Source of the DNA: Clostridia bacterium
GTDB taxonomy: Bacteria > Bacillota > Clostridia > Oscillospirales > CAG-272
DNA: 64,000 bases
NCBI GenBank assembly: GCA_017503325.1
Contig: JAFVTI010000006.1
Coordinates: forward strand, 14,947-78,946
Direction: 5' to 3'
The notes beneath the pieces were generated by a model. The model saw only the letters and a list, made by a program, of their open reading frames with translations, was not told the origin of the DNA and ran no database searches. The stretch's first letter is position 1. Each line of letters begins with the position of its first letter. The translations under genes were made by a program, and so were the position numbers. This document shows, piece after piece, positions 5,996 to 58,686 of this stretch.

Positions 5996-8900
5996 ATGGG
6001 AGAAACAATTTTGAAGGAATACAGAGCAGGCATCGACATAGGCTCCACAACGGTCAAGCTCGTGGTGCTGGATGCCGAGGATCATATCATATACGGACAA
6101 TACAGACGCCACATGGCGAAAACGCAGGAAACGCTTGCCGCGCTTTTACGCGAAGCAACGGAAACGATTGGTGACTGTGCCTTGAAAGTAAAAATAACGG
6201 GATCGGGCTCGATCAATCTCGGTAAAGCCCTTGGCATTGATTTTGTTCAAGAGGTCGTGGCGGTCGCAACGGCACTCAAAAAGGTCGCGCCGCAGACTGA
6301 CGTTGCCATCGAGCTTGGCGGCGAGGATGCGAAGATCATCTACTTCACGGGCGGTCTTGAAGAACGTATGAACGGCGTTTGCGCAGGCGGTACGGGCTCG
6401 TTCATCGATCAGATGGCGGCACTCTTGCAGACCGATGCCGAAGGACTCAATAAAGCAGCCGAGAATTATAAAGAAATATATCCGATTGCCGCGCGTTGCG
6501 GTGTGTTTGCCAAAACCGATATTCAGCCGCTTATTAACGAGGGCGCGACAACGGCAGACCTTGCCGCCTCAATCTTTCAGGCGGTGGTCAATCAGACCAT
6601 TTCAGGACTTGCCTGCGGAAAGCCCATACGCGGATGCGTTGCCTTTCTCGGTGGTCCACTTCACTTTATGCCCGAGCTGAAAAAGGCGTTTGTCCGTACC
6701 TTGAAGCTGACGGAGGAAACCACCATTGATCCCGAAAATTCGCACTTGTTTGCGGCAATGGGCGCGGCACTTGAAGCCGAGGGAGAATGTGCCGTTTCCG
6801 CAAGTGAGCTTGTTGGTCGGCTCTCCGAGGGTGTAAAAGTCACCTATGAAATGCCTCGTCTTGAGCCCTTGTTTGCTACAAACGAGGAATACGAGGCATT
6901 CAAGACTCGTCATAAGACGGCAGTACTGCCCAAGGGCGACCTTTCTACATATAACGGAAATGCCTTTCTCGGTATTGACGCTGGATCTACCACAACCAAA
7001 ATGGTGCTGATCGGTGAACGGGGGGAATTGCTGTTCTCCTTCTATGCCAATAATAGAGGCGATCCCATCAAGACCGCCAAGGAAGCCTTTGACAAATTAA
7101 AAGCACAGATGCACAGCGGTGTGCGTATCGTTCGCTCCTGTTCCACGGGATATGGCGAGGCACTTCTCAAATCCGCCTTTTCGCTTGACGAGGGTGAAGT
7201 GGAAACCATTGCGCATACGACGGCGGCATCCTTCTTCGATAAAGACGTGGACTGTGTGCTTGATATTGGCGGTCAGGATATGAAGTGCATCAAGCTCAGA
7301 ACCGGAGCGGTAGATACCATATTGCTCAACGAGGCTTGCTCCTCGGGGTGCGGTTCGTTTATCGAAAACTTTGCAAACTCTCTTGGCTTTACCGCCGAGG
7401 ATTTTGCAAAAGAAGCGCTGTTCGCAGAAGCTCCTGTTGACCTCGGAACGAGGTGCACCGTTTTTATGAATTCCAATGTCAAGCAAGCGCAGAAGGAGGG
7501 CGCATCCGTTTCGGATATTTCGGCGGGACTTGCGTACTCCGTAATCAAGAACGCACTGTATAAGGTCATCAAGCTCGCCGATGCCAAGGATCTCGGAAAG
7601 CATATTGTGGTACAAGGCGGCACCTTTCATAATGAAGCGGTTCTACGTGCCTTTGAGAAGATCGCAGGCGTAGAAGCCACTTGTCCCGACATTGCGGGAC
7701 TTATGGGCGCATTTGGCGCGGCTCTGATTGCAAAGCAGAATTACCACGGCAAACCCACAGAAATGCTCTCTCTTGATGAAATAGCAGAGCTGACCTATAC
7801 GGCAACAAGCCGCCGTTGCGGCGGATGCTCCAACAACTGTATGCTTACCGTCAATCGCTTCTCAAACGGACAGAGCCATATCACCGGCAACCGTTGCGAG
7901 AAAGGAATCGGCAATATCGGCGGCAGAAGAAAAGCACCGAATATGATGGAATACAAGCGCAAGCGTATATTCGATTACGAGCCGCTTGATGAAAAGGACG
8001 CGCCTCGCGGTGTGATCGGTATTCCGAGAGTGCTGAATATGTACGAAAACTATCCCTTCTGGGCGACCTTCTTCCGTGAGCTTGGCTTCCGTGTCGTGCT
8101 CTCACCGTGGTCAAGCAGAAAAATATACGAGCTTGGTATGGAGTCGATTCCATCCGAGTCGGAGTGCTATCCGGCAAAGCTCTCTCATGGGCACGTAGAA
8201 TGGCTGATCGCGCAAGGAATCAAAACCATATTCCACCCGTGCATCTACTACGAGCATAAGGAGATCACCACGGCGCAGAACCAATATAACTGTCCTATCG
8301 TTGTGTCCTATGCTGAAAATCTAAAGAATAACGTGGAAGCCATCACGCGCGGGGACGTTCGTCTCGTTCGTCCGTTTATGGCGTTTACCTCGGAAAAGAT
8401 TGCCGCTGACCGATTGGTTACCATTTGCCGTGAGGAGTGGAACATTCCCGAAAAAGAGGTCAGAGCCGCAGTGCTTGCCGCTTGGCAAGAGCAACAGAGA
8501 GCAAGATTTGATATTCGCGCAGAAGGAAAAAGGTTGCTTTCCGATATGCAATTGAACGGTGGCAACGGCATCGTCCTTGCAGGTCGCCCGTACCATATCG
8601 ATCCCGAAATCAACCACGGCATTCCCGAGCTGATCGCATCCTACGGATTTACCGTATTTACGGAGGATAGCCTGCCCGTAGACATCTCTCCCGAGAGACC
8701 GTTGCGTGTGCTTGACCAATGGGTGTACCATTCAAGGCTTTATGCTGCTGCTGAATTCGTGAGAAGCCGTGACGATTTGGAGCTGATACAGCTCAATTCC
8801 TTCGGTTGTGGTCTGGATGCGGTGACCACCGATCAGGTAAATGAGATACTTGAGGGCAGTAACAAGCTCTATACGGTTCTGAAGATCGACGAGGTGAACA

Positions 8901-46872: not shown

Positions 46873-48288
46873 GTGGACGCCAGGATCAAGCGGCTGTTTG
46901 GAAATACCGTGATCTTTACGGTAGGGAAATTCGTATCCAAAATGCTGGTCTTTTTCATGATGCCGCTGTATACCGCGTGTCTGTCCGAGGCGCAGTATTC
47001 CACCGCGGATCTGATCACGCAGCTTGCCAATCTGCTCATCCCGCTTGCCTGTCTCGGCATTGCCGATGGGCTGTTCCGCAACGCGGCCGCCAAGGAAGGG
47101 GACAAAGAGGCCTTTTTCTCCAGCGGCATGGCCATTTTGGCCATCAGCTCGGCGGGCTTTTTGCTGCTCTCTCCGCTGCTTTTGCTGCTGGAATACTTCG
47201 CGTCTTACGTCTGGCTGATCGTTATCTTCGTGCTGTGCTCCAATTTCCATTCGGTTTGCGCGCAGTACGTTTGCGCCATCGGACGCACCAAAACCTTTGC
47301 GGTGCAGGGAATTGTCAACACCGCGCTCAACATCGGCTTCAATCTTTTGTTCCTTCTTGGCTTTGACATGAAGATCGAGGGGTACGTACTCAGCGTCGTG
47401 TGTGCCGATTTTGTCACCACGCTGCTGCTGATTGTGTATTGCAGGCTGTGGCGCGCCTTTTCGGTCAAAAAGATCTCACGCAAGATCATGGGCGAGATGC
47501 TCCGCTTCTCGCTGCCGCTTATCCCCACCACGGTATTCTGGTGGATCACGGGCGTTTCGGATCGCTATCTGGTCGCACGCATGCGCTCGGATGCCGAAAA
47601 CGGCCTCTACGCGGCAGCCTATAAGATCCCTACGCTGCTGACCTACGTGGTGTCTGTATTCAATGAGGCATGGCGTCTGTCCGCAGTCAAGGAGTCGGAC
47701 GATCCCGACGCCTGCGCCGAATTTTTCGGCAAGGTGTTCCGCTATTATGCGGCCATCGTGTTCGTGGGCGGTGCTGCCTTGATCGCGTTTGCTAAGGTTG
47801 CCTCGGTGGTTTTGTTTGCAGATTCCTATTTTGAGGCCTGGTTGTACGTGCCGGTTCTGGTGCTTGCCACCGTGTTCACCTCGTTTGACTCGTTCCTTGC
47901 TACCGCGTATTTCACCAAGAAAAAGACCATGGTGTCGTTCTATACCTCCATGCTGGGTGCGGTGCTCAACGTCGTGCTCAATCTGATCTGGATTCCGTCG
48001 TGGGGCGCAGTCGGCGCGTCGGTTGCCACGCTGATCAGCTATTTTGCGGTGTTTGTGCTGCGCGCGGCCACCATGCATCGCTATATCCGCTTCAATCTGC
48101 AGATTCCTCGCATCGCCATCAATACCGTGCTGCTTGGCGGCATGACGCTCATTATGATGACCGAGCCGCACCTCTGGCAGCTGTACGTCGGCCTTTTGGC
48201 CGCTGCGGTGGCATGCTTGAACGCACCCGCGCTGCTCTCCATGCTCAAAATGCTGCCCGAGATGCTGAAGGGAAGAATGAAACGCTGA
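46873..48288 (+). CDS. Polysaccharide/oligosaccharide flippase (MOP superfamily, Wzx/SpoVB-like)
   Basis: 471-aa protein with about 12-14 TM helices. N-terminus RLFGNTVIFTVGKFVSKML.FFMMPLYT is typical of the family. GTG start. Confidence 0.8.
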   Translation: MDARIKRLFGNTVIFTVGKFVSKMLVFFMMPLYTACLSEAQYSTADLITQLANLLIPLACLGIADGLFRNAAAKEGDKEAFFSSGMAILAISSAGFLLLSPLLLLLEYFASYVWLIVIFVLCSNFHSVCAQYVCAIGRTKTFAVQGIVNTALNIGFNLLFLLGFDMKIEGYVLSVVCADFVTTLLLIVYCRLWRAFSVKKISRKIMGEMLRFSLPLIPTTVFWWITGVSDRYLVARMRSDAENGLYAAAYKIPTLLTYVVSVFNEAWRLSAVKESDDPDACAEFFGKVFRYYAAIVFVGGAALIAFAKVASVVLFADSYFEAWLYVPVLVLATVFTSFDSFLATAYFTKKKTMVSFYTSMLGAVLNVVLNLIWIPSWGAVGASVATLISYFAVFVLRAATMHRYIRFNLQIPRIAINTVLLGGMTLIMMTEPHLWQLYVGLLAAAVACLNAPALLSMLKMLPEMLKGRMKR

Positions 48289-48336
48289 AGCAGCGAAAAA
48301 ATATGAGAAAAATGTAAAATATTTTTCAAAAAACTC

Positions 48337-48365
48337 TTGCATTTTGAAAAAAGATATGTTATAAT
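48337..48365 (+). promoter_or_regulatory. Sigma-A-type promoter of rplS
   Basis: TTGCAT, 17 nt, TATAAT. Confidence 0.6.
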
Positions 48366-48454
48366 AACCGATGCGTGCCATGAGCACGGCATTAGAACGG
48401 GTGGTCCGCTGCATGCTCGCAAGAACATCCGATAATATAAGGAGGGCCATCAAA
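48366..48454 (+). promoter_or_regulatory. Structured ~85-nt rplS leader (possible L19 autoregulatory leader)
   Basis: Hairpin atgcgtgc-catga-gcacggcat and further pairing precede the AGGAGGG RBS. Firmicute rplS genes are known to carry an L19 leader motif. Identity was not verified. Confidence 0.3.
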
Positions 48455-48796
48455 ATGAATCTGATCGAGGCTTTTACAAACGAGCAATTGAAGGCAGAAA
48501 TTCCTTCTGTCAACGTTGGTGACACTGTACGTGTTCACAACAAGATCAAAGAGGGTTCCAGAGAGAGAATCCAGCTTTTCGAGGGTACCGTAATCGCTAA
48601 GCACGGTGCAGGTATCTCTGCTACCTTTACTGTAAGAAGAATTTCTTACGGCTGCGGTGTTGAAAAGACTTTCCCCATCCACTCTCCCAACGTAGTAGCT
48701 GTTGACACTATCCGTCGTGGTAAGGTCAGACGTGCAAAGCTGTACTACCTGCGTGGCAGAGTTGGTAAGGCTTCTAAGGTTAAGGAAAAAATCTAA
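48455..48796 (+). CDS. rplS: 50S ribosomal protein L19
   Basis: MNLIEAF....[26 protein letters not shown] in a 113-aa protein. Confidence 0.95.
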
Positions 48797-48811
48797 TCTT
48801 AGAGAAATAGA

Positions 48812-48846
48812 AAAGGCGAACGCGATTATGCGCTCGCCTTTTCTAT
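48812..48846 (+). terminator. Rho-independent terminator after rplS
   Basis: Stem aaggcga..cgc / gcg..tcgcctt followed by a T run. Confidence 0.65.
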
Positions 48847-48872
48847 ATTCGTGGGTTTTCTCGCGCAATCTC

Positions 48873-48901
48873 TTGCAATTCTTTCGGTGGTATGCTACAA
48901 T
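48873..48901 (+). promoter_or_regulatory. Sigma-A-type promoter
   Basis: TTGCAA, 17 nt, TACAAT. It lies 32 nt upstream of ATG 48934. Confidence 0.55.
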
Positions 48902-48933
48902 ATACGTAATGATAAAAAAGGGGAGAGATACCG

Positions 48934-50136
48934 ATGAAATACGATTTTACGAGCATTATGGACAGACACGGCAAGGACGCCATTGCCGTGGACGCGCTGG
49001 GGCATGGTTGGGCACCTGCAGCACCGGCCGAGGGATTTGACGCCATCCCCATGTGGGTCGCGGACATGAATTTCCCGACAGCCCCTACGGTTATTGCGGC
49101 CATGCAAGAGCGCGTGCAGCATCCCGCATTCGGGTATTTTGATCCTCGCGAGGAGTATTATGCCTCCATCATTCGCTGGCAGAGCGAGCGCAACGGCGCC
49201 ATGGGTCTTGAACCCAAGCACATCGGCTATGAAAACGGCGTGCTGGGCGGTGTTTTGTCCGCGCTGAACACCTTCTGCTCGCGCGGCGACAACGTGCTGG
49301 TGCTCAGTCCCTTGTACGTGGGCTTCCGTGGCTCGCTGCATAATAACGGCTACAATATCGTGGAAAGCCGCCTTGTGCAGGACGAAGCGGGAAAATGGCG
49401 CATTGATTTTGAGGACGTGGAGCAAAAGATTTTGCAAAATCACATCCATGCAGCCATTTTCTGCTCGCCGCACAATCCTACGGGGCGCGTTTGGGAGAGA
49501 TGGGAGATCGAGCGCATCATGGAGCTTTACCGCAAGCATGACGTATACGTCATCTCGGACGAGATCTGGTCGGATATCATTCTGGACGGCCACAAGCATA
49601 TCCCCACGCAATCGGTCAGCGAGGACGCGCGACAGAGAACGGTTGCGCTGTATGCCCCCTCCAAGACCTTTAATTTGGCGGGTCTGATCGGTGCTTACCA
49701 TATCATTTATAACGACCGCATCCGCGACCGCGTGGAAAAGGAATCCTCGCTCTCGCACTACAATTCCATGAACGTGCTGTCCATGTACGCGCTGATCGGT
49801 GCATATCAGGACGAGGGACAGGTATGGGTAAACGAGCTTTGCGAGGTACTGTCCGGCAACGTGGATTTTGCCTGCAAGTATATCGCCGAGCATTTCGAGG
49901 GGGTTAAGGTATTCCACCCCGAGGGCACGTACATGCTGTTCATCGATTGCGCCGAGTATATGCAAAAGCACGGCAAGACGCTGGACGAGATCGTGGCTGC
50001 AGGCTGCGCGGTGGGCGTGACCTGGCAGGACGGCCGCGTGCATGGCGGCACGACGCACATCCGTCTCAATCTCGCATTGCCGCTCTCGCGCGTGCAAGAG
50101 GCCTTTGACCGCCTGCGCAAATACGTATTTATATAA
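48934..50136 (+). CDS. PLP-dependent C-S lyase, MalY/PatB family (cystathionine beta-lyase-like aminotransferase fold)
   Basis: N-terminus MKYDFTSIMDRHG and PLP-lysine block APSKTFNLAG in a 400-aa protein. Confidence 0.85.
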   Translation: MKYDFTSIMDRHGKDAIAVDALGHGWAPAAPAEGFDAIPMWVADMNFPTAPTVIAAMQERVQHPAFGYFDPREEYYASIIRWQSERNGAMGLEPKHIGYENGVLGGVLSALNTFCSRGDNVLVLSPLYVGFRGSLHNNGYNIVESRLVQDEAGKWRIDFEDVEQKILQNHIHAAIFCSPHNPTGRVWERWEIERIMELYRKHDVYVISDEIWSDIILDGHKHIPTQSVSEDARQRTVALYAPSKTFNLAGLIGAYHIIYNDRIRDRVEKESSLSHYNSMNVLSMYALIGAYQDEGQVWVNELCEVLSGNVDFACKYIAEHFEGVKVFHPEGTYMLFIDCAEYMQKHGKTLDEIVAAGCAVGVTWQDGRVHGGTTHIRLNLALPLSRVQEAFDRLRKYVFI

Positions 50137-50189: not shown

Positions 50190-50256
50190 CTAACAGAACG
50201 GACGCGAAAAAAAGCCTTGCCTCAAGGGAAGAGCGAAGGGAATGGATTCGCGCAAA

Positions 50257-50577
50257 AAGCCTTCCCCGCTGGGGTAAGGTGGCGCCGTAGGCGACGGATG
50301 AGGTCCCCATAAAACCGCTCAAAACAATCTTGGGCGTCTTTCACATAGGAAGAGAGAACACTTGCTCCCTTCAGGGAGTAGGAGCAAAGCGACGGAGCGT
50401 GTTTTGCTATATTGATCGAATATCTGATAGCTTAAAGCTTTTTGCCCTCTGTATCTCCCAAAGGGAGAAAGGGATCAGTTGCCCTATGGGGTAGATCGCC
50501 TAAAGATGGTTCAGAGCGGTTTTATGGGGACCTCATCCGTCGCCTACGGCGCCACCTTACCCCAGCGGGGAAGGCTT
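50257..50577. repeat. Perfect 64-bp GC-rich inverted repeat with a 193-nt structured spacer
   Basis: 50257-50320 (aagccttccccgctggggtaaggtggcgccgtaggcgacggatgaggtccccataaaaccgctc) is the exact reverse complement of 50514-50577. The arms extend imperfectly to about 50249 and 50590. Confidence 0.95.
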
Positions 50578-50665
50578 GTTTCGCGTTTCCGCATCACCGT
50601 ATCGGCTCCGCTATAACCCTCTGTTACAAATGCAAAAAATGTGTCAAAGATTTTATGAAAATCTC

Positions 50666-50694
50666 TTGATTTTTACGTAAATTTATGATAATAT
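50666..50694 (+). promoter_or_regulatory. Extended -10 sigma-A-type promoter of the SipW-associated operon
   Basis: TTGATT, 17 nt (ending in TGa), TAATAT. It leaves a ~140-nt purine-rich leader before ATG 50838. Confidence 0.5.
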
Positions 50695-50837
50695 TACCGT
50701 AGGACTTTGTTTCACTTTATGAAAAAAGAATGGGTAGCAGGGAAGCGCTCGTTCGTATTTTCATATCAATAGGTCAAAAGCCTTGATATATAAAGGAAAA
50801 ACAAAAGCTGAAAATACAAGAAAGGAAAAACAAAAAA

Positions 50838-51380
50838 ATGAAAAACAGAAAAACAATTATTGTAGGCTTTATTCTTGTAGCTTGCATGATCATGGGTGTT
50901 GGTTATGCGGTACTTACTGACTCTCTCGAGGTTGGCGGTACTGCAGAGATTAAGAAGGATGCAGCAGAGGATGCATTCGACTTTGATGTTCGTTTTACTA
51001 ATGCTACAGCGGTAACTCCGGGAAATACAACAAGCATTAATGCAGATAACGACGATAAGGTTTCCTTCACCGCATCTTCACTCGCGGAAAAGGATGACGT
51101 TGCTACGTTTGAGTACGAGGTAACAAACAGTAGTGATCTTATTGCTAAGATTGCGTCTACAGATATTGATGCTAATGTAACCACTTTAACAGCAGATGAT
51201 GGTACTGTTACTACTCCCTCAGAGAGTATTTTTGAAGTTACCTACTCGTGGAATACAGAAACTATTGCCGCAAATGGCGGTACGGCAATACTTACAGTTC
51301 ATGTAAAACTTAAGGAAACGCCCACTGTTTACGCAAAGGGAACATTTACTCTTACCATTAGTGTAATTTCCGAGGAGTAA
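50838..51380 (+). CDS. Small secreted acidic Thr/Ala-rich protein with a SipW-class-like signal peptide; candidate major fibre or matrix subunit
   Basis: The signal and mature N-terminus MKNRKTIIVGFILVACMIMGVGYA|VLTDSLEVGGTAEI share a motif with the 54157 ORF. There are no Cys residues and the sequence looks beta-rich. The block SSLAEKDDVATFEYEVTNSSDLIAKI recalls TasA/camelysin-type sandwiches. Confidence 0.7.
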   Translation: MKNRKTIIVGFILVACMIMGVGYAVLTDSLEVGGTAEIKKDAAEDAFDFDVRFTNATAVTPGNTTSINADNDDKVSFTASSLAEKDDVATFEYEVTNSSDLIAKIASTDIDANVTTLTADDGTVTTPSESIFEVTYSWNTETIAANGGTAILTVHVKLKETPTVYAKGTFTLTISVISEE

Positions 51381-51452
51381 CAGTTAGCTTAGACTCATTG
51401 TTTTGAGCGACCAAATACCAATCTATCATATGAGTAATCAAGGAGGTCAGCA

Positions 51453-52574
51453 ATGTCAGACAAAAGAATATTGCACGCAATATCTGCGTCGACCCTTGCT
51501 GTCCTCCTTCTTGCATTTTTCCTTCCGGGTGAATACAGCGGCAAGGTAACCGCCGCTGTATTGCTCCTGCCCGTTGCGTTGCTTTGTCGGTTTGCCATCA
51601 AAAAGAGAAGCATTCCGTCCATCAACAAAGGGCAGGTTCTTATGATCATGTCGATCATTAGCGTGGTGCTTCTGACACTTTTATATATGACCGGTCTTGA
51701 GTTCGGATTTGTCAGAAATCCGTACGCGCTGCATGCCAGATTTTTGCTTGGGTATGCGCTTCCCACCTCGGTCATTATCGTAGCGTCCGAGTATGCCCGT
51801 TACGTCATGCGCGCACAGAACGACAAGGCCGCAGACGTTTTGTCCTATCTGTTCTGCGTGGTTGCCGAGATTCTGATCTTCGGTAACTTTGCATACATGA
51901 ACACCTTCAACAGATTCATGGATTTCGTGGGAGTCACGCTGTTTCCCGCAATCATTGCAAATCTGCTTTACCATTATCTTTCCAAGCGTTACGGGGCAAC
52001 GCCCAATATCGTGTACCGCGCCGTGCTTGCGCTGTATACGTACTTTATCCCCGTTGTGTCGGGAATCCCCGATTCGCTCATGGCTTTCGCCAAGCTTTTT
52101 ATCCCAATTCTCATTTATCTTTTCATTGACGCGCTGTTTGAAAAGAAGAGAAAATACGCACTTGTCAAAACCAGCAAGCTGTCCGTGGTCATCACGGCGG
52201 TCGCTGTCGTGATCATGGCAGGTGTGGTCATGCTGATCTCCAACCAGTTCCGCTTTGGCGTGTTGGTGATCGCAACCCCCAGTATGACGGGCGAGCTCAA
52301 CAAGGGTGACGCCGCCATATTTGAAAAATACGAGGACCAGCCCCTTGTGGAGGGTCAAGTCATTGTGTTCGAAAAAGACGGCTCTATGATCATTCACAGA
52401 GTCGTGGACATACAAACGGTCAACGGTACGACCAGATATTTCACCAAGGGTGATGCCAACGAGGATCTCGATGCGGGCTTCATCTATCGCTCCGACATCG
52501 TGGGCGTGGTGAACTACAAGGTGCCGTATATTGGCTATCCGACCATCTGGTTGCGTAGCTTATTCCAACGATAA
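51453..52574 (+). CDS. sipW: Signal peptidase I of the SipW/Sec11 (S26B) type, fused to an N-terminal ~265-aa 8-TM domain
   Basis: AAGGAGG RBS. The C-terminal 105 aa carry TPSMTGELNKGD (Ser), MIIHRVV (His) and FTKGDANEDLD, the ER/archaeal-type Ser-His pattern. About eight additional hydrophobic helices precede it. Confidence 0.8.
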   Translation: MSDKRILHAISASTLAVLLLAFFLPGEYSGKVTAAVLLLPVALLCRFAIKKRSIPSINKGQVLMIMSIISVVLLTLLYMTGLEFGFVRNPYALHARFLLGYALPTSVIIVASEYARYVMRAQNDKAADVLSYLFCVVAEILIFGNFAYMNTFNRFMDFVGVTLFPAIIANLLYHYLSKRYGATPNIVYRAVLALYTYFIPVVSGIPDSLMAFAKLFIPILIYLFIDALFEKKRKYALVKTSKLSVVITAVAVVIMAGVVMLISNQFRFGVLVIATPSMTGELNKGDAAIFEKYEDQPLVEGQVIVFEKDGSMIIHRVVDIQTVNGTTRYFTKGDANEDLDAGFIYRSDIVGVVNYKVPYIGYPTIWLRSLFQR

Positions 52575-52585
52575 GGAGGTAAACC

Positions 52586-54130
52586 ATGTCCGAAGCCGAA
52601 AGATTACGACGACAGGAATATAAGCGTAACAGAAAAAAATGGATCATCATTCAATCTGTTGCATTGGCCGTGGTTTTGGCAATTGCGCTTGCTTCTTTTG
52701 TCATTTATGACAGAATGAACCGCACCTACTATATTGAATACACCGAGAACGGCGGCGTGGATTACAAGGTATTCTTGAAGGACAACCCCTTCTACGATGA
52801 TGCCTACCTTGAAAAGGATCAATCCTACGTTGCAAGCCTGATCAAGGAGATCACGGCCGAGTTTACTTACGATCTGACTATGGACGCCGAAAGCGTAGGC
52901 TTTGACTATACCTACAAGATCGACGCACAGGTTATCGTTGCCAACAAGGACACGGGAGATCCTATCTACGATCCCACCTTTGAGCTGATTCCCGAAACCA
53001 AAGAAAGTGCAGAGAACGGCAACCTTTTGGGCATTGACAAGAGCGTTGTGATCGATTATAACAAATATAACAAGCTTGCAACCGATTTTATCAAGGCGTA
53101 CGACCTCAAGAGCACCACGAGCACCCTGGTGGTCACCATGACCGTGGACGTGCTCAGCCGCTGTGAGGAATTTGAGGATAACAATCAGAATTCCTATTTC
53201 GTGTCTCTGAACATCCCGCTGACAGAGGAGAACTTCAGTATCTTTTCCACCTCCAGCACGCCCGAGGCACAGAACAAGGTGCTGGCTTGCAGCGGTGCAG
53301 TCAACCAGAACGTATTTATGATCGTGGGCATCGTGCTTTTGTCGATCGACGTGCTGCTGGCAGCGCTTCTGACCGCGTTTATCTACATTACCAGAAACGA
53401 AGACGTTACCTATGCAAACAAGGTTCGCAAGCTGGTGTCCTCCTATCGCTCCTTCATTCAGCAAATGGAGGGCGAGTTTGACACCGAGGGATATCAGATC
53501 GTGCCCATCAAGACCTTTGGTGAAATGCTGGGTATCCGAGACACCATTCAGTCTCCGATTCTGATGTTTGAAAACCTTGACCAGACCATGACCGAATTCG
53601 TCATCCCCACCAACACCAAGATCCTTTACAGCTTTGTGATCAAGGTGGACAACTACGACGAGATCTACAATACACCCGAGCCCGAGCCTGAGCCCGAGCC
53701 CGAACCCGAGGAAGAGGTCGTCATTCATGACGAGAGCATTCCCGAGGAGGAAATCGCAGAGGCGATGGAAACTCCGGACGTGGTGCTTGAGGAGATCAAC
53801 TACGTAGAGGACAACGACGAGGAGCTGGAAGAGGGCGTTGAGGTCATCGGCGTTGTATGGCCCGAAAAGGCAAACAGAAATAAGGTTTACCGCTACGACC
53901 CGGACGGCGAAAAGCTGGAGAAGGGCGATATGGTTCTCGTTCCCACAAGGGACGTGCACAAGAATAAAGAGGTGATCAGAAAAGCCGCCGTTGCACACGA
54001 GAATCACAGAATTGACCCCGCATTGCATCCCCATGCGATCAAAAAGATCATAGGCGTTATCAGACGCCATGCTGACGCAGTTCTTGCGCCTGCGCCCAAG
54101 GATGCTGAGCAAAACAACAACCAAGAATAA
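52586..54130 (+). CDS. Bitopic membrane protein with a DUF5305-like layout, a (Pro-Glu)n linker and a small C-terminal beta-rich domain
   Basis: Basic N-terminus and TM1 (aa 19-41), a ~200-aa outside domain, TM2 (~aa 243-268) and a cytoplasmic domain. PEPEPEPEPEPEEE follows, then VIGVVWPEK.NRNKVYRYDPDGEKLEKGDMVLVPT. The DUF5305 assignment is from memory. Confidence 0.6.
   Translation: MSEAERLRRQEYKRNRKKWIIIQSVALAVVLAIALASFVIYDRMNRTYYIEYTENGGVDYKVFLKDNPFYDDAYLEKDQSYVASLIKEITAEFTYDLTMDAESVGFDYTYKIDAQVIVANKDTGDPIYDPTFELIPETKESAENGNLLGIDKSVVIDYNKYNKLATDFIKAYDLKSTTSTLVVTMTVDVLSRCEEFEDNNQNSYFVSLNIPLTEENFSIFSTSSTPEAQNKVLACSGAVNQNVFMIVGIVLLSIDVLLAALLTAFIYITRNEDVTYANKVRKLVSSYRSFIQQMEGEFDTEGYQIVPIKTFGEMLGIRDTIQSPILMFENLDQTMTEFVIPTNTKILYSFVIKVDNYDEIYNTPEPEPEPEPEPEEEVVIHDESIPEEEIAEAMETPDVVLEEINYVEDNDEELEEGVEVIGVVWPEKANRNKVYRYDPDGEKLEKGDMVLVPTRDVHKNKEVIRKAAVAHENHRIDPALHPHAIKKIIGVIRRHADAVLAPAPKDAEQNNNQE
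53675..53710 (+). repeat. In-frame hexanucleotide tandem repeat (CCNGAR)x6 encoding (Pro-Glu)6
   Basis: cccgag cccgag cctgag cccgag cccgaa cccgag, inside the 52586 ORF. Confidence 0.9.
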
Positions 54131-54156
54131 TTTCATAAAGAAGGGAGAGTGTGACT

Positions 54157-55596
54157 ATGACAAAGAGAATGCTGATTGTGCTTTGTGTCGCACTCTCCTT
54201 TATGTGTGCCTTTATCTCAGTGGGCTATGCCGCCCTGACCGATACCTTCAATATCATGGGACACGCGGAAATTGAAATTCCGTACGGCTTGTTTATTACG
54301 AGTATCGAGCCGCTTTCCGATTCAAATCTGGATGTCATGGACGTCAGCCACGTGCAGCATTCCACAACGGTGGAGTGCTCTTTGAGTAAAGTGTATTCCT
54401 ATTACGGCACCAACGGCTCGGTTACCTATGAAATTACCGTGTTCAATAACACCACGCGCGAGTATGCATTCCGAGCACTGTATTATCAGGACGGCACGTA
54501 CAACAACAATATGATTGAGAACTATAACGGAAGCAATTCCATCGGTGTTATCACGCATTTTCCGGACGGCAAAAAGGTTGCCCCCGGCAAGTCCTTGACC
54601 TTCCACGTAACCTACAACCTCGGCACGGGACTTTATCCTTACAACACCTATAAAACGCTGATCAACTATCAGTTTGGTATTAACGTTGACTCCGAAACCG
54701 AGGCCGTGGACGTCGTACACGATAAGTTCCTGGATATTCTGAATACCACCTCGACCTATGAAACGCTGGTTGACGTATTGGATAACAAGTACGACGGCTC
54801 GCAGGAATGGACCTCCAACTACGTCGGTAACGTTGGTAATGCAACCTCTGACGACGCACTCGCGGTCAACACGCTGTTCGCAGGCCAGCTGCAGCTGGTC
54901 ATTGACGGCCAAACCAAGCCCGCAACCGTACTGATCAAGCACGAAAACCTGGATAATAACCGAAACACCGGTGACGACTACGTTGCAGTCAACAAAAACA
55001 ATCAAGGCAGCCCGTTCTACGGCTACGGATGTGAAATGACGCTGTATCTGACTACGGATGATCTGGATCAGAAGAATGGCTGGGCACCGGTCTACGTTTC
55101 CGTCTTTACCTGTGACCGCGATGAAAACGGCAATATCGTAGGCGACTGGTATCTGATCGGTGAGACGTATAAGGGCAGAGCCAATATCGTCGGATATAAC
55201 GGTGAAGCCGGTGGAACAGGCTCGTTCGTTACGGACAACTGGGTTGCGGATGCGGCAACCTACCAGGTCACCGACCATTATTCCTACTACGTAGCGGATG
55301 GCACCACCATCAAAACGCTGACGCAGACGGTAGATCCGGGCTTGACCAACGAGTTCCAAAGCCTGCTCAATCGCGCCAAGGCTATGATCGACGATACCAC
55401 CTATGCAGGCACGGGTATCACCGTGGTCGAGGAGGCCTACGAAAGAGCAGCGCCGTATTTCACCGTGGATGCAAACGGTAACCCCGTAGCAGACCCAACC
55501 ATCACAAGAGCGCAGCTTTGTCCCATCGTCAAGTTCCTGGAAACCAAGCTGAACGAAGCCCAGGACAAGATTGACCAAATCGTAGGTCAGCAATAA
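54157..55596 (+). CDS. Large secreted protein with the same SipW-class-like signal and N-terminal motif; candidate minor subunit or adhesin
   Basis: MTKRMLIVLCVALSFMCAFISVGYA|ALTDTFNIMGHAEI. ATG 54157 lies 7 nt after a GGGAGAG RBS; the track start is GTG 54151. The body is beta-rich with a helical C-terminal ~90 aa. Confidence 0.7.
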   Translation: MTKRMLIVLCVALSFMCAFISVGYAALTDTFNIMGHAEIEIPYGLFITSIEPLSDSNLDVMDVSHVQHSTTVECSLSKVYSYYGTNGSVTYEITVFNNTTREYAFRALYYQDGTYNNNMIENYNGSNSIGVITHFPDGKKVAPGKSLTFHVTYNLGTGLYPYNTYKTLINYQFGINVDSETEAVDVVHDKFLDILNTTSTYETLVDVLDNKYDGSQEWTSNYVGNVGNATSDDALAVNTLFAGQLQLVIDGQTKPATVLIKHENLDNNRNTGDDYVAVNKNNQGSPFYGYGCEMTLYLTTDDLDQKNGWAPVYVSVFTCDRDENGNIVGDWYLIGETYKGRANIVGYNGEAGGTGSFVTDNWVADAATYQVTDHYSYYVADGTTIKTLTQTVDPGLTNEFQSLLNRAKAMIDDTTYAGTGITVVEEAYERAAPYFTVDANGNPVADPTITRAQLCPIVKFLETKLNEAQDKIDQIVGQQ

Positions 55597-55600
55597 AATC

Positions 55601-55634
55601 AAAAGGCATTATCGCAAGGATAATGCCTTTTTTG
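55601..55634. terminator. Bidirectional terminator closing the SipW-associated operon
   Basis: Stem aaggcattatc / gataatgcctt followed by TTTTT. The convergent gene ends at 55649. Confidence 0.7.
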
Positions 55635-55648
55635 TATGGAATTGTATT

Positions 55649-56716
55649 TTACCACTCCAGCTTGATTTCCTCGTTCTGCTCGGAGGAATCGTAGATGGCC
55701 TGCATCATACGCGCGGTGATGATGACCTGGTCGATGTGAGAGGGAAGCTTTTCACCCGTCTTGATGCAGCGGATGAAGGAATCGATCTCGTTCTGGAACA
55801 TGTGCACGCTTTCATATTCGGGCACTTCCTTGGTCAGCTTGCCGTCCTTGGTGCCGAATACCGTAAAGTTGCCGCCGTAGTTGAGGCGCACGCCTGCCTT
55901 GTCGCCCAGGAAGTCGATGTAAGCCTCGCCAATGCCGATGTTCTGCGCCCATGCGCCGTTGAAGGTGATGGTCGGACCCTCGGTGCGGATAAAGCCGGTT
56001 ACGCTGTCGTCCACGTCGTAGGTGCCGTTCAGATCCTTGGTGTCCTCGGCCCACATGCCCTCGTAAACGTAGTTCGGCATATCAACGCCCAGCTTGGAGA
56101 ATGCCTTGCCCGAAACGGTCAGAGGCTTGGGGTCGCCCGTGCAGTACATGACGATATCAAGATAGTGCACGCCCCAGTCGATCAGAGAACCACCGCCTGC
56201 GATCTCCTTGGTGGTAAATGCGCCGCCAAGTCCGGGGATGGAACGCCATGCGCGGAAGGAAACGTATACGTGATAAACCTCGCCAAGCTCGCCTGCCTCA
56301 ATCAGCTTTCTGATCTCATTGACGGCCGTGTTGAAGCGGTTGACCACACCGATGTTGAGCACCTTGCCCGATTTGTGCTGCGCTTCTTGCATCAGCTTTG
56401 CTTCTGCATAAGTGCGAGCTGCGGGCTTTTCGCAAAGCACGTGCTTGCCATGCTCCAAAAAGTCAATGGCAATGGTGGTGTGCATGCGGTTGGGTGTGCA
56501 GACCGAAACCGCCTCGATCTCCGGGTCGTCCAGAATTTCACGGTAGTCTACGATGGCAGTGCCGCAACCGTACTTTTCAACGGCAGCCTGCGCCTTTTCG
56601 GGAATGATGTCGCAGAAATACTTGATCTCCACCTCGGGGTTGTTCATGTATGCGGGAATATGCGCGCTGTTTGCGATCGTACCGCAGCCGATCACGGCAA
56701 CCTTGATTTTGCTCAT
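55649..56716 (-). CDS. Gfo/Idh/MocA family NAD(P)-dependent oxidoreductase
   Basis: Rossmann N-terminus KVAVIGCGTIANSAH and EKP motif LCEKPAA. ATG 56716 follows an AGGAGG RBS. Confidence 0.85.
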   Translation of the reverse strand: MSKIKVAVIGCGTIANSAHIPAYMNNPEVEIKYFCDIIPEKAQAAVEKYGCGTAIVDYREILDDPEIEAVSVCTPNRMHTTIAIDFLEHGKHVLCEKPAARTYAEAKLMQEAQHKSGKVLNIGVVNRFNTAVNEIRKLIEAGELGEVYHVYVSFRAWRSIPGLGGAFTTKEIAGGGSLIDWGVHYLDIVMYCTGDPKPLTVSGKAFSKLGVDMPNYVYEGMWAEDTKDLNGTYDVDDSVTGFIRTEGPTITFNGAWAQNIGIGEAYIDFLGDKAGVRLNYGGNFTVFGTKDGKLTKEVPEYESVHMFQNEIDSFIRCIKTGEKLPSHIDQVIITARMMQAIYDSSEQNEEIKLEW

Positions 56717-56856
56717 GGGGCAGTCCTCCTTGATAAAACTATTACCATGATTATACTCCTTTTTGATCAATTCGTCAAGAATAATTGCAGATGTTCACAC
56801 CGTGTTAAAAAATATTTGCTACACTATCTGTATATCACCCAATCCGGAGGAAAGCA

Positions 56857-57294
56857 GTGACAGTCAAGATCGTAAAGCTGCAACAAAATGCACACATTCC
56901 CACCTATGGAAGCGCCGACGCAGCAGGCGCGGATCTGTATGCATGCATTGACGAGGCGGTGACCATACAGCCAAGTCAGACCGTGCTGATCCCCACGGGA
57001 CTTTCAATGGAGATCGAGCAGGGCTTTGCGGGATTTATCTATGCGCGCAGCGGCCTTGCCACCAAGCGCGGACTTGCACCTGCCAATAAGGTCGGCGTGA
57101 TCGACAGCGATTATCGCGGTCAGGTCATGGTCTCCTTGCACAATCACACAGACCGGCCGCAGACGGTTGAGCCGGGCGAGCGAGTGGCGCAGATGGTGTT
57201 TGCGCCCGTATACCAAGCGCAATTTTGCGAGGTGGATGCGCTGCAGGACACCGAGAGAGGCACGGGCGGATTCGGATCCACCGGAACAAAATAA
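56857..57294 (+). CDS. dut: dUTP diphosphatase
   Basis: AAGADLYA, GVIDSDYRGQV and C-terminal RGTGGFGSTG. GTG start after GGAGG. Confidence 0.9.
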   Translation: MTVKIVKLQQNAHIPTYGSADAAGADLYACIDEAVTIQPSQTVLIPTGLSMEIEQGFAGFIYARSGLATKRGLAPANKVGVIDSDYRGQVMVSLHNHTDRPQTVEPGERVAQMVFAPVYQAQFCEVDALQDTERGTGGFGSTGTK

Positions 57295-57333
57295 GAAACG
57301 ATCATGAGAATAATTACTATTTTGGAGGAAATT

Positions 57334-58686
57334 ATGAAAACCATTAAGATTCTTTGTCTGATGCTGGCTGCGCTGATGCTCGGCGTTTGCTTTGTCGGTT
57401 GCGAGGGTGGGCAGGAAGAAACCACGACTCCCGAAGACACCACAGCTCCCGAGGGCACCGCAACACCCGAGCAGACCACAGAAGAGCAGACCACCGAGCC
57501 CGAGCCCGAAAAGCCCGAGGAGCTGCTTGCATACGACACCTACTATCTGGACACCTACATGAAGCCTATCTGGAAGGGTAAGTACATGTACAACGAGACC
57601 ATCATGTTCGTCGGCATGGACGACAAGGCTTCCTTGCTGTATACGCCCGACGAGATCCTTTCCGTCACCTCCTATGACCTGAAAACGGTTTACGAGCAGG
57701 GTAAGGACTATGACCTTGTAGACGGACAGCTGGTGCTGCTTGAGGGCACGCGCATTCCCGTCATCACGTTTGAGGAATACTATCACGAAACCGAGATCCC
57801 CGGCATGCCCGCACAGCTTGTCACCAAGTATGACGGAAAGCAATATTTTACCTATTGGGGTGAGGGCGTGGTCATGACTCAGTGGCAGATTGCCGTGACC
57901 TACACGCACAGCCAGACATGGGAGGGCTTTGTACCCGAGACCTCGAATCAGTTTGCAAAGCTGATCGCAAAGCTGGAGGCAGGTCAGGACGCTACCATGA
58001 TCTTCTATGGCGACAGCATCACCTTCGGCGCATCCTCGTCGGGACTCTCCGGCACCAATCCTTACGCACCCTCCTATACCCAGCTGTTCACGCAGTACCT
58101 GGCGCAGAAGTATGGCTATACCGTCAAGTACGTCAACACCGGTCTTACAGGTGCTGCAGTTCCTCCCGCAGAGGACACCGTGTTCGGCACAAACGGTACC
58201 ATTACCTATATCAATCCCGCCGTGGGTGGCTGGACCAGTGCTGACGGCTTTAACAAGTTTGACGAATACGTCAAGCCCTTCGTAGAGCAGTACGGCTGTG
58301 ATTTCTTCCTGCTGGCGTTCGGTATGAACGATGCAGGAAATTCCCCCAAGAACGAGCAGAAGGCAATCAAGAAGATCTCGGATAAGCTGTATGAGATCGC
58401 ACCCGAGGCTGAGATGCTGCTTGTAGCGACCATGATCCCCAATCCCGAGGCTACCAACGGCTGGTACGGCAATCAGCACCGCTTTGAAAACGTGTTTGAA
58501 ACGCTTGCTGCTGACTACGTAGCAGACGGTAAGTCCTGTGCCGTCGCAAAGATGACCACCATGAGCCAGAGAATTCTGGAGAACAAGCGCTTCCGCGACC
58601 ACACCGGTAACAATATCAACCATCCCAACGACTTCCTGAGCAGAATTTACGCGCAGGTCGTTTATCAGACCGTGATCGGTTATTAA
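57334..58686 (+). CDS. Lipoprotein with a C-terminal SGNH/GDSL hydrolase domain
   Basis: Lipobox CFVGC and a Thr/Glu/Pro-rich linker. Blocks FYGDSITFG, FGMNDA and NHPND are present. Confidence 0.75.
   Translation: MKTIKILCLMLAALMLGVCFVGCEGGQEETTTPEDTTAPEGTATPEQTTEEQTTEPEPEKPEELLAYDTYYLDTYMKPIWKGKYMYNETIMFVGMDDKASLLYTPDEILSVTSYDLKTVYEQGKDYDLVDGQLVLLEGTRIPVITFEEYYHETEIPGMPAQLVTKYDGKQYFTYWGEGVVMTQWQIAVTYTHSQTWEGFVPETSNQFAKLIAKLEAGQDATMIFYGDSITFGASSSGLSGTNPYAPSYTQLFTQYLAQKYGYTVKYVNTGLTGAAVPPAEDTVFGTNGTITYINPAVGGWTSADGFNKFDEYVKPFVEQYGCDFFLLAFGMNDAGNSPKNEQKAIKKISDKLYEIAPEAEMLLVATMIPNPEATNGWYGNQHRFENVFETLAADYVADGKSCAVAKMTTMSQRILENKRFRDHTGNNINHPNDFLSRIYAQVVYQTVIGY

Follow-up and report, generated by a model that had tools for sequence, protein, structure and literature searches.

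Introduction

The AbpX fibril has been solved as a chaperone-free, Ca2+-assisted donor-strand polymer (10.64898/2026.01.04.697558; PDB 9SJ2, 9RHP), and the abpX loci of archaea and Bacillota typically encode a signal peptidase I with about ten transmembrane spans and a DUF5305 "accessory" protein, along with minor subunits and a tip protein (10.64898/2026.01.04.697558). The AbpX precursor reads …AIGLTYA↓QWSETLSLSATIS (the arrow marks cleavage here and below), and its donor strand comprises W2, E4, L6, L8, A10, and I12 (10.64898/2026.01.04.697558). Here we describe a four-gene operon from a Clostridia bacterium (GenBank assembly GCA_017503325.1, contig JAFVTI010000006.1), located within a 64,000-nt stretch of that contig that we refer to as the window. 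From the sequence evidence assembled below, the operon is probably a self-contained system, dependent on Sec and on signal peptidase I, for building an extracellular fibre, either a pilus or a matrix filament, through donor-strand complementation.

Several other described systems pair a dedicated signal peptidase with fibre subunits. The Tafi cluster of Haloarcula hispanica encodes a pilin (TafA), a signal peptidase (TafD), and a DUF5305 protein (TafG); deletion of tafD leaves TafA unprocessed and abolishes the fimbriae, and assembly in a heterologous host requires the full gene set (PMC11821415, PMC12337348). Sec-dependent Tafi relatives in Thermococcales and Archaeoglobales encode a peptidase, a DUF5305 protein, two to three pilins 150-200 aa in length, and a larger protein of two domains that was modelled at the tip as the initiator (PMC11821415, PMC12337348). 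For the DUF5305 protein of both the Tafi and the AbpX loci, a role as signal-peptidase accessory has been suggested as a proposal only (PMC11821415, PMC12337348, 10.64898/2026.01.04.697558). In Bacillus subtilis, SipW processes TasA and TapA, and TapA has an N-terminus that is similar to the donor strand of TasA and that nucleates fibres (PMC9674648). Clostridium perfringens BsaA is reported to form intermolecular isopeptide bonds and to be secreted in a manner linked to type IV pilus genes (PMC7395162; 10.1101/2024.11.04.621531).

Genes 1 and 4 share a signal peptide and a putative donor-strand signature

All genes of the operon lie on the forward strand, and positions are those of the window. 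Gene 1 (50838-51380) encodes a putative major fibre subunit precursor of 180 aa with a predicted Ig-like beta-sandwich. Its isoelectric point (pI) of 4.2 and its N-terminal hydrophobic helix agree with the small secreted acidic protein that had been proposed from the sequence alone; its C-terminus reads …VISEE. The class-specific signal peptide (residues 1-24; 50838-50909) consists of MKNRK, a hydrophobic h-region, and VGYA, with cleavage predicted after Ala24, and it is followed by a putative donor strand, recognized by its signature and predicted strand character, at mature residues 1-16 (VLTDSLEVGGTAEIKK; 50910-50957). By the signature statistics, hhalign, and AlphaFold2 (AF2), the N-terminal part of gene 4 (54157-54726) contains the same three parts, namely a signal peptide, the donor-strand signature, and a gene 1-like beta domain. 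The cleavage regions read …MIMGVGYA↓VLTDSLEVGGTAEI in gene 1 and …AFISVGYA↓ALTDTFNIMGHAEI in gene 4. Only these two open reading frames bear the signature in the 64-kb window, and related loci never carry more than two genes bearing it.

The signature statistics were taken from 139 relatives of gene 1. Before the cleavage site, 99% have G at position -3, and 100% have Y or F at -2 and A at -1, the latter (Ala24) being the sole fully invariant column of the family. After it, 94-99% have a hydrophobic residue at each of positions +2, +6, +8, and +14, 84% an acidic residue at +4, 97% a G at +10, and 89% a small or hydrophobic residue at +12; at +2 itself, L accounts for 64%, V for 24%, I for 5%, and F for 2%. 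The gene 4 family carries the signature in the same register. We read this pattern as a canonical signal-peptidase-I site that is followed by a predicted amphipathic beta-strand. The similarity extends past the N-terminus, and hhalign matched residues 6-178 of gene 1 to residues 12-190 of gene 4 with a probability of 95.2% (E 2.8e-8). Gene 4 therefore appears to be a gene 1-like module with an extension of about 290 aa.

Searches against Pfam and NCBIfam returned nothing over threshold for either protein, which bears out the earlier remark that the substrates fit no named family. The sequence-only reading had also held that matches to ordinary enzymes or other non-polymerising families would speak against a fibre, and no such match was found for genes 1 and 4. 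A match of gene 1 to the NCBIfam "class F sortase" model (21 bits; cutoff 166) and matches to HtaA and Pertactin were set aside as sub-threshold noise. No LPXT[GAS] motif was found near the C-terminus in any of 43 homologues of gene 4.

The signal peptidase and the DUF5305 protein

Gene 2 (51453-52574; 373 aa) begins with a polytopic membrane domain of about 8-10 hydrophobic spans by hydropathy (51453-52268) and ends in the catalytic domain of a signal peptidase I of the endoplasmic reticulum (ER)/archaeal, or SipW, class (52269-52574). The catalytic domain scored 67.8 bits against TIGR02228 (cutoff 51.85) and 23.3 bits, just over the cutoff of 22.9, against Peptidase_S26, so that the proposed fusion of a SipW-class peptidase to a polytopic domain is upheld. 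Because the SipW equivalog model NF046067 failed (49.9 bits, below its cutoff of 190), gene 2 is placed in the SipW class and is not taken as a SipW orthologue. The catalytic Ser277 (SMTGE), His315 (HRV), and Asp334 (GDAN) are invariant in 108 homologues, as are K51, R52, S56, P104, E113, R116, Y175, G181, and P184 of the polytopic part, for which the Pfam search gave no family match. Gene 2 is a dedicated signal peptidase I of the ER/archaeal type whose Ser/His/Asp set is intact.

Gene 3 (52586-54130; 514 aa) matches DUF5305 (PF17231) over residues 131-337 with 38.5 bits (cutoff 29), a family that had been named beforehand as a candidate for this operon. It had also been called bitopic; hydropathy instead revealed two hydrophobic spans, at residues 17-45 and 232-272. 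The resulting topology comprises a short basic N-terminus, a span, an extracytoplasmic segment, the second span, and a cytoplasmic C-terminal part with a PEPEPE linker. This acidic linker (PEPEPEPEPEPE; residues about 358-375, window 53660-53710) arises from a GC-rich codon repeat, and a minus-strand "terminator" scanned at 53660-53710 is an artefact of that repeat. A DUF5305 protein was recorded in orthologous loci too, and the gene 3 orthologues vary in length from about 380 to 1,150 aa. By analogy with the Tafi cluster, we regard gene 3 as a putative TafG-like signal-peptidase accessory.

Distribution and co-conservation of the four genes

Relatives of these genes were found to be numerous. 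Full-length relatives of gene 4 form more than 614 clusters (55-100% identity) and relatives of gene 2 more than 1,341 clusters; all come from uncultured Clostridia and are unnamed or annotated as hypothetical or "signal peptidase I". A genome scan yielded 53 loci from about 50 species, in metagenome-assembled genomes labelled Eubacteriales, Clostridia, Oscillospiraceae, Christensenellaceae, or Faecousia, and the sources that are named are yak, sheep, goat, cattle, or deer gut.

Synteny was counted in 43 loci from different species whose sequence was long enough for the purpose. In 41 of them the four genes adjoin one another, which is far more than chance would give and agrees with the co-conservation that a functional unit had been expected to show. 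The order is gene 1-2-3-4 in 35 of the 43, while five carry the circular permutation gene 4-1-2-3 (L015, L032, L041, L045, and L050; also seen in the cut loci L019 and L042), and in one (L020) gene 4 is transcribed divergently from genes 1-2-3. The other two (L025 and L031) have gene 4 alone, with none of genes 1-3 within 7 kb on either side. The flanking genes are wholly different between distant loci. Given the adjacency in 41 of 43 loci and these unrelated flanks, the four genes form a self-contained module.

An exhaustive profile search recovered 5,572 cluster representatives of the gene 1 family at E <=1e-3 and 1,681 at E <=1e-10, where the weak tail of the search may match the signal/donor region alone. 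Among the matches listed, nearly all are 157-223 aa long and share a common N-terminus. One outlier of 3,313 aa with 17 matches to the gene 1 profile (P0292) was rejected as a Calx-beta repeat protein with generic beta-sandwich or compositional similarity.

Hypervariability of the gene 1 mature domain

The mature domain of gene 1 and the spacer between genes 1 and 2 form a hypervariable allelic cassette (50894-51431), as delimited by comparison with a conspecific locus, L004 (GCA_965122925.1). The window and L004 are about 97% identical over 9 kb, and the flanks of the cassette are 89-100% identical per 100-nt window. The exceptions are an unrelated insertion/deletion island upstream and the cassette itself, in which nucleotide identity falls to 33-58%. 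At the protein level, the mature domain of gene 1 is 29% identical, compared to 97% for gene 2, 99% for gene 3, and 96% for gene 4. The 5' break-point of the cassette coincides with the junction of signal peptide and donor strand, and the 3' break-point lies just 5' of the gene 2 ribosome-binding site. The GC content of gene 1 is 41% against 50% for genes 2-4.

Other conspecific alleles of gene 1 encode 198, 199, and 208 aa, giving four sizes in one species. Their mature domains are 28-38% identical to the window allele and 56-83% identical among themselves, and mature domains of different conspecific allele classes share 28-59% identity. Between species, the mature domain is about 33% identical regardless of how far genes 2-4 have diverged. 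In our reading of these alignments, such a pattern points to a surface component that is exposed, abundant, and subject to diversifying selection, and whose assembly elements are conserved.

Predicted structures and the gene 4 extension

The AF2 model of gene 1 (mean predicted local distance difference test, pLDDT, 80.7) starts with the signal helix, has a hinge of low confidence where cleavage is predicted, and continues as an all-beta domain whose first strand spans residues 30-40. A Foldseek search of this model against the PDB ranked self-complemented FimA first (6ERJ and 5LP9; E 2.5e-4, probability 1.0), with a template modelling (TM) score of about 0.4 and 11-13% identity, followed by adaptin-ear Ig-like domains. 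The structural check suggested for gene 1 thus returned a predicted beta-sandwich with an N-terminal strand, for which an Ig-like self-complemented pilin is the best PDB match.

In the gene 4 model (pLDDT 83.6), the signal helix is followed by an undocked coil at residues 28-43, which corresponds to the donor-like segment, and a beta domain at residues 44-177. Residues 180-240 form helices and residues 246-380 a second beta domain, after which the model ends in a helical tail. These latter parts make up the C-terminal extension of about 290 aa (54727-55596), an orphan and highly conserved region in which H262, C292, C319, R321, and W362 are invariant (residues ~190-479). No PDB or BFVD counterpart of this region was found by sequence or fold. 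Foldseek matches of the gene 4 model against the PDB and BFVD were confined to the N-terminal helix and the Ig-like part, and PDB sequence searches with the gene 4 profile and with the C-terminal region gave generic Ig/Fn3-like matches or none. The FTCDR (VFTCDR) motif together with His262 brought to mind a sortase (TLxTC) or an L,D-transpeptidase (C-x-R); this likeness was rejected, as no match to a sortase or YkuD family or fold was obtained.

Comparison with described fibre systems

AbpX is among the closest known likenesses. The gene 1/gene 4 consensus GYA↓ALTDTLDITGSADV and the AbpX sequence TYA↓QWSETLSLSATI match position by position in register, +2 excepted. Both systems have a small acidic subunit (pI about 4), a Y-A↓ site, an acidic +4 and hydrophobic +2, +6, and +8 residues, a dedicated signal peptidase I, a DUF5305 protein, and an extra subunit-like minor or tip protein. 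Profile alignment of gene 1 with AbpX by hhalign gave a probability of 8.6% with 19 sequences and of 50.5% (E 1.6e-4) with 139 sequences, both runs in the same donor register and including the F-x-[LI]-x-N-x-G strand. Homology at the level of BLAST or hidden Markov models was not found between gene 1 and AbpX. AbpX itself barely reaches the TasA Pfam model (Peptidase_M73; E 0.072), and a PDB sequence search with it finds no other superfamily member; weak signals between subfamilies are therefore to be expected. We regard the profile evidence for homology of gene 1 to AbpX as suggestive. When metagenome contigs were scanned with the AbpX sequence for abpX loci whose peptidase could be compared with gene 2, no relatives were found; the likeness of gene 2 (about 8-10 hydropathy spans) to the AbpX-linked peptidase (about ten transmembrane spans) is one of span count.

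Other features separate the two systems. The gene 1 model is a predicted beta-sandwich of similar size to the TasA-like jelly roll, but its best PDB matches, at low TM-scores, are FimA-like Ig pilins. The immediate neighbours are housekeeping genes, and no LPXTG motif was found; the S-layer homology (SLH) anchors, kinases, and cyclic di-GMP (c-di-GMP) genes of bacterial abpX loci were not searched for. The operon in the window has a single minor protein of a novel 479-aa type, and its major subunit is allelically hypervariable.

The Tafi cluster resembles the operon in its dedicated peptidase, DUF5305 protein, small pilins, and larger protein (TafC) with a pilin-like N-terminal domain, and also in having variable structural genes beside a conserved machinery. 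Unlike the archaeal Tafi pilins, which have a Tat signal, gene 1 is bacterial with a Sec-type signal (KNRK). The twin arginine is absent from gene 1 (MKNRKT) and gene 4 (MTKRM), both of which continue into a strongly hydrophobic h-region; some gene 1 relatives carry KKRR in an equally short n-region. The peptidases also differ in design, as TafD has an N-terminal peptidase domain and four spans, whereas gene 2 has its polytopic part at the N-terminus and its peptidase domain at the C-terminus, after about 8-10 spans. No homology to DUF1102 or TafA was found, and the TafB regulator and the TafF terminator of Tafi are lacking here.

[quoted passage not shown] It differs in that no Peptidase_M73 match was obtained here (E <=1, genes 1 and 4), in the extra polytopic domain on the peptidase, in gene order, and in lacking the DUF5305 gene that is present here. 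The sipW-bsaA operon is similar in being a clostridial SipW-linked extracellular matrix operon; in comparison, the operon studied here has no BsaA-family match, no type IV pilus genes in the cassette, and other partners (DUF5305 and gene 4). The likeness to FimA lies in an Ig-like pilin completed by a donor strand and is one of mechanism, not of membership, since the FimA pathway is a Gram-negative periplasmic chaperone/usher pathway and neither component is present here. With respect to sortase-type pili, the cassettes hold no sortase and no LPXTG was found on gene 1 or on the 43 gene 4 homologues. With respect to type IV pili, no motif of the G↓F(T/S)LxE type was found, and the cassettes examined hold only the four genes.

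From these comparisons, the machinery as predicted is that of Tafi/AbpX-type loci. The operon had been taken for an uncharacterised assembly system, which holds for the subunit families but not for the overall architecture, because the combination of peptidase, DUF5305 protein, small pilin, and larger pilin-like protein is known from Tafi and AbpX. In the literature searched, we did not find descriptions of the subunit family, the orphan gene 4, the minimal four-gene form, the abundance in gut Clostridia, or the cassette variation.

Operon layout, expression signals, and surroundings

Gene 4 (54157-55596; 479 aa) completes the operon. An alternative in-frame GTG start lies at 54151, and the ATG was preferred because homologues begin there. 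The genes are closely spaced, with 72 nt between genes 1 and 2, 11 nt between genes 2 and 3, and about 20 nt between genes 3 and 4. The proposed arrangement of four co-directional genes between a promoter-like site and a strong terminator was reproduced, as all four open reading frames and the hairpin are present. Good ribosome-binding sites had been claimed for all genes; genes 2 and 3 do have GGAGG upstream, but gene 1 has AAAGGA with an 11-nt spacer, a Shine-Dalgarno sequence that is kept across loci and imperfect compared to GGAGG.

The promoter-like site upstream of gene 1 (TTGATT-N17-TAATAT with an upstream TG; 50666-50695) was read from the sequence as a putative sigma-A promoter. It matches the consensus at 8 of 12 positions, a score below the scan threshold, and is for that reason absent from the scan listing. 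The block that holds it is nearly invariant among four conspecific strains, and sigma-A promoters with 11-12 of 12 consensus positions occur 110-235 nt 5' of gene 1 in 14 of 45 orthologous loci. The chance of a 12/12 promoter was estimated at about 5 in 100,000 per 300 nt, from (1/4)^12 and about 900 combinations of position and spacer. The promoter claim thus gains from the conserved block and the orthologous promoters, while the site in the window is itself sub-threshold.

Between this site and gene 1 lies a long 5' leader (50700-50837) with an A/purine-rich 3' end and a predicted stem-loop. Folding gave -27.9 kcal/mol (z -3.3 against shuffled controls), and the last 100 nt have a purine fraction of 0.67 and an A fraction of 0.49, consistent with the long purine-rich leader noted earlier. 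A 29-nt direct repeat (50792-50820 and 50821-50849) duplicates the AAAGGAAAAAC Shine-Dalgarno-like motif. The leader is 82-97% identical to that of the conspecific L004, and a small hairpin was observed 35-60 nt 5' of the gene 1 start codon in many orthologous loci. The leader structure may be an mRNA-stabilising element. At the other end, a bidirectional intrinsic terminator with a 13-bp stem (55601-55634, both strands) is shared with the convergent Gfo/Idh/MocA gene; its hairpin has -17.9 kcal/mol (z -4.1) and is followed by UUUUUU on the forward strand. An attenuator or terminator hairpin was sought by folding in the spacer between genes 1 and 2 and was not found (z +1.15), in keeping with the stated lack of an internal terminator.

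The neighbouring genes encode a Wzx/MurJ-like polysaccharide flippase, rplS, and a class I/II aminotransferase on the upstream side (46873-50136), and a Gfo/Idh/MocA oxidoreductase, a dUTPase, and a secreted GDSL-family lipase/esterase on the downstream side (55649-58686). No regulator or sortase is found among the immediate neighbours; the rest of the 64-kb window was not annotated and c-di-GMP genes were not searched for. Between the aminotransferase terminator and the promoter lies an inverted repeat whose 88-nt arms (50244-50331 and 50503-50590) are 92% complementary and stand 171 nt apart. It was noted in ten conspecific assemblies (the window and nine others) in one orientation, L004 has unrelated sequence in its place, and L067 has both elements. 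It had no Rfam match and no further copy in the window, and it looks like a small inserted foldback element or one resembling a miniature inverted-repeat transposable element. A role as an invertible phase switch was rejected, given its single orientation, its absence from L004, and its position outside the predicted promoter. In several conspecific strains (L059-L066, about 7082-7558), an IS200/IS605-type Y1 transposase gene (PF01797) lies directly 3' of the gene 4 terminator. The corresponding site in the window is at about 55640, between gene 4 and the Gfo/Idh/MocA gene, and carries no insertion.

Proposed mechanism and alternative explanations

If the operon builds a fibre, Sec would export the products of genes 1 and 4, and their unusually conserved signal peptide would keep both in the membrane, where it would be recognized by a complex of the polytopic peptidase and the DUF5305 protein. 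This gene 2/gene 3 complex would cleave after Ala24 of gene 1 and after the equivalent GYA of gene 4. Cleavage would free an N-terminal strand of about 16 residues (x-L-T-D-x-L-x-I-x-G-x-A-x-V), which would enter the open beta-sandwich of the next subunit, such that gene 1 polymerises into the shaft of the fibre. Strong promoters and the long structured leader may drive high expression of gene 1. Gene 4, at the end of the operon, would be made in smaller amounts and may act as a sub-stoichiometric initiator, tip, or anchor, a role suggested because it combines a free donor-like strand with a conserved extra domain, as has been proposed for TapA and TafC. Phages or host immunity would select for variation of the exposed surface of gene 1, with the donor strand, the core of the groove, and the machinery staying constant.

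The fibre interpretation put forward from the sequence alone came through the checks that were run, with fibre formation itself being inferred. Several observations weigh against it. The structural models are AF2 monomers of genes 1 and 4 only. Models of TasA/camelysin (Peptidase_M73) and DUF1102 in Pfam and NCBIfam matched neither gene 1 nor gene 4, no member of the TasA superfamily (TasA, AbpA, and others) appeared in the top 50 Foldseek matches of gene 1, all of its Foldseek TM-scores are <=0.40, and PDB profile searches with 19 and 139 gene 1 sequences gave generic Fn3/Ig-like matches only (E >=0.004). The alignment with AbpX covers the N-terminal 60% of gene 1 and draws part of its score from the signal peptide, and the +2 residue is an aliphatic L or V in gene 1 as opposed to the aromatic clamp of AbpX and TasA. 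The accessory role of DUF5305 is itself just a literature proposal. No anchor that would hold a fibre on the cell wall was recognised (no LPXTG was found; SLH domains were not searched for).

Some of these points would suit an export system without polymerisation, in which gene 1 is a variable monomeric surface antigen, coat, or decoy, gene 4 is a conserved secreted binder or enzyme, and the dedicated peptidase/DUF5305 pair merely matures proteins or releases them from the membrane. The polymer is inferred only, and the gene 1 fold also fits adaptin ears, C5a peptidase Fn3-like domains, and CARDB-like domains. The C-terminal region of gene 4 is conserved in the manner of an enzyme or specific binder, with invariant His and Cys, and any exposed antigen could be hypervariable. 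However, a small acidic protein that lacks an anchor would diffuse away, and the pairing of this peptidase with DUF5305 has so far been reported in filament loci. Moreover, the strictly alternating hydrophobic pattern of the first 14 mature residues is better conserved than the domain that follows, recurs in two otherwise different proteins, and matches a solved donor strand, all of which is hard to reconcile with a monomer. We consider this explanation unlikely.

The same machinery could instead build a spore-associated structure, such as a coat or exosporium fibre or appendage, in place of a vegetative pilus or biofilm matrix. Many Clostridia sporulate, which counts in favour of this idea. 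TasA, moreover, was first characterised as associated with the spore coat (PMC9674648). The gene 1 promoters of many orthologues are perfect sigma-A-type promoters (TTGACA-17-TATAAT) and do not resemble those of sporulation sigma factors, and the neighbours of the operon (rplS, aminotransferase, dut) are housekeeping and not sporulation genes; neither point is decisive, and we hold a spore structure to be quite improbable. Still less probable, in our estimate, is that genes 1 and 4 are left uncleaved, with the N-terminal helix acting as a membrane anchor or as an assembly helix in the manner of type IV pilins, and with gene 2 serving another substrate or a regulatory role. The first 24 residues are indeed far more conserved than ordinary signal peptides, and an archaeal type IV pilus subunit is among the Foldseek matches (8q30, E 0.015). 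Against this, the h-region invariably ends in a canonical -3/-1 site (G-x-A), a prepilin-peptidase motif (G↓FxxxE or its archaeal equivalent) is absent, and an intact, co-conserved signal peptidase I gene adjoins; the operon and its syntenic cassettes also lack an assembly ATPase, a platform protein, and a prepilin peptidase.

Beyond the donor-strand fibre that we favour, a bolder possibility, which we put forward as doubtful, is that the operon represents not a divergent relative of TasA/AbpX but a distinct class of Gram-positive fibre with a FimA-like pilin, a polytopic peptidase/DUF5305 machine, a cassette-swapped shaft, and an orphan protein as tip or initiator. Such a fibre would assemble without chaperone, usher, or sortase, swaps of its shaft would give antigenic or phage-receptor variation, and the invariant C-terminal domain of gene 4 (His/Cys) would have a new binding or enzymatic function.

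Biological implications

In the gut and rumen of animals, uncultured Oscillospirales and other Clostridia belong to the dominant community members, and to our knowledge almost nothing is known about their surface structures. The four genes form a compact and widespread cassette that is annotated as hypothetical throughout, except for "signal peptidase I". Should the fibre interpretation be true, filament systems based on a peptidase and DUF5305 would reach into mainstream gut commensals, beyond extremophilic archaea and a few Bacillota, and the operon would offer a minimal and tractable model for the roles of DUF5305 and of the polytopic peptidase domain. The fibre would then be a strain-variable surface antigen and a candidate determinant of phage sensitivity, immunoglobulin A (IgA) recognition, aggregation, and adhesion, and the variability of gene 1 would make it a useful strain marker in metagenomes. 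If the fibre does belong to a class of its own, it would be among the commonest unrecognised surface organelles of animal-gut Oscillospirales.

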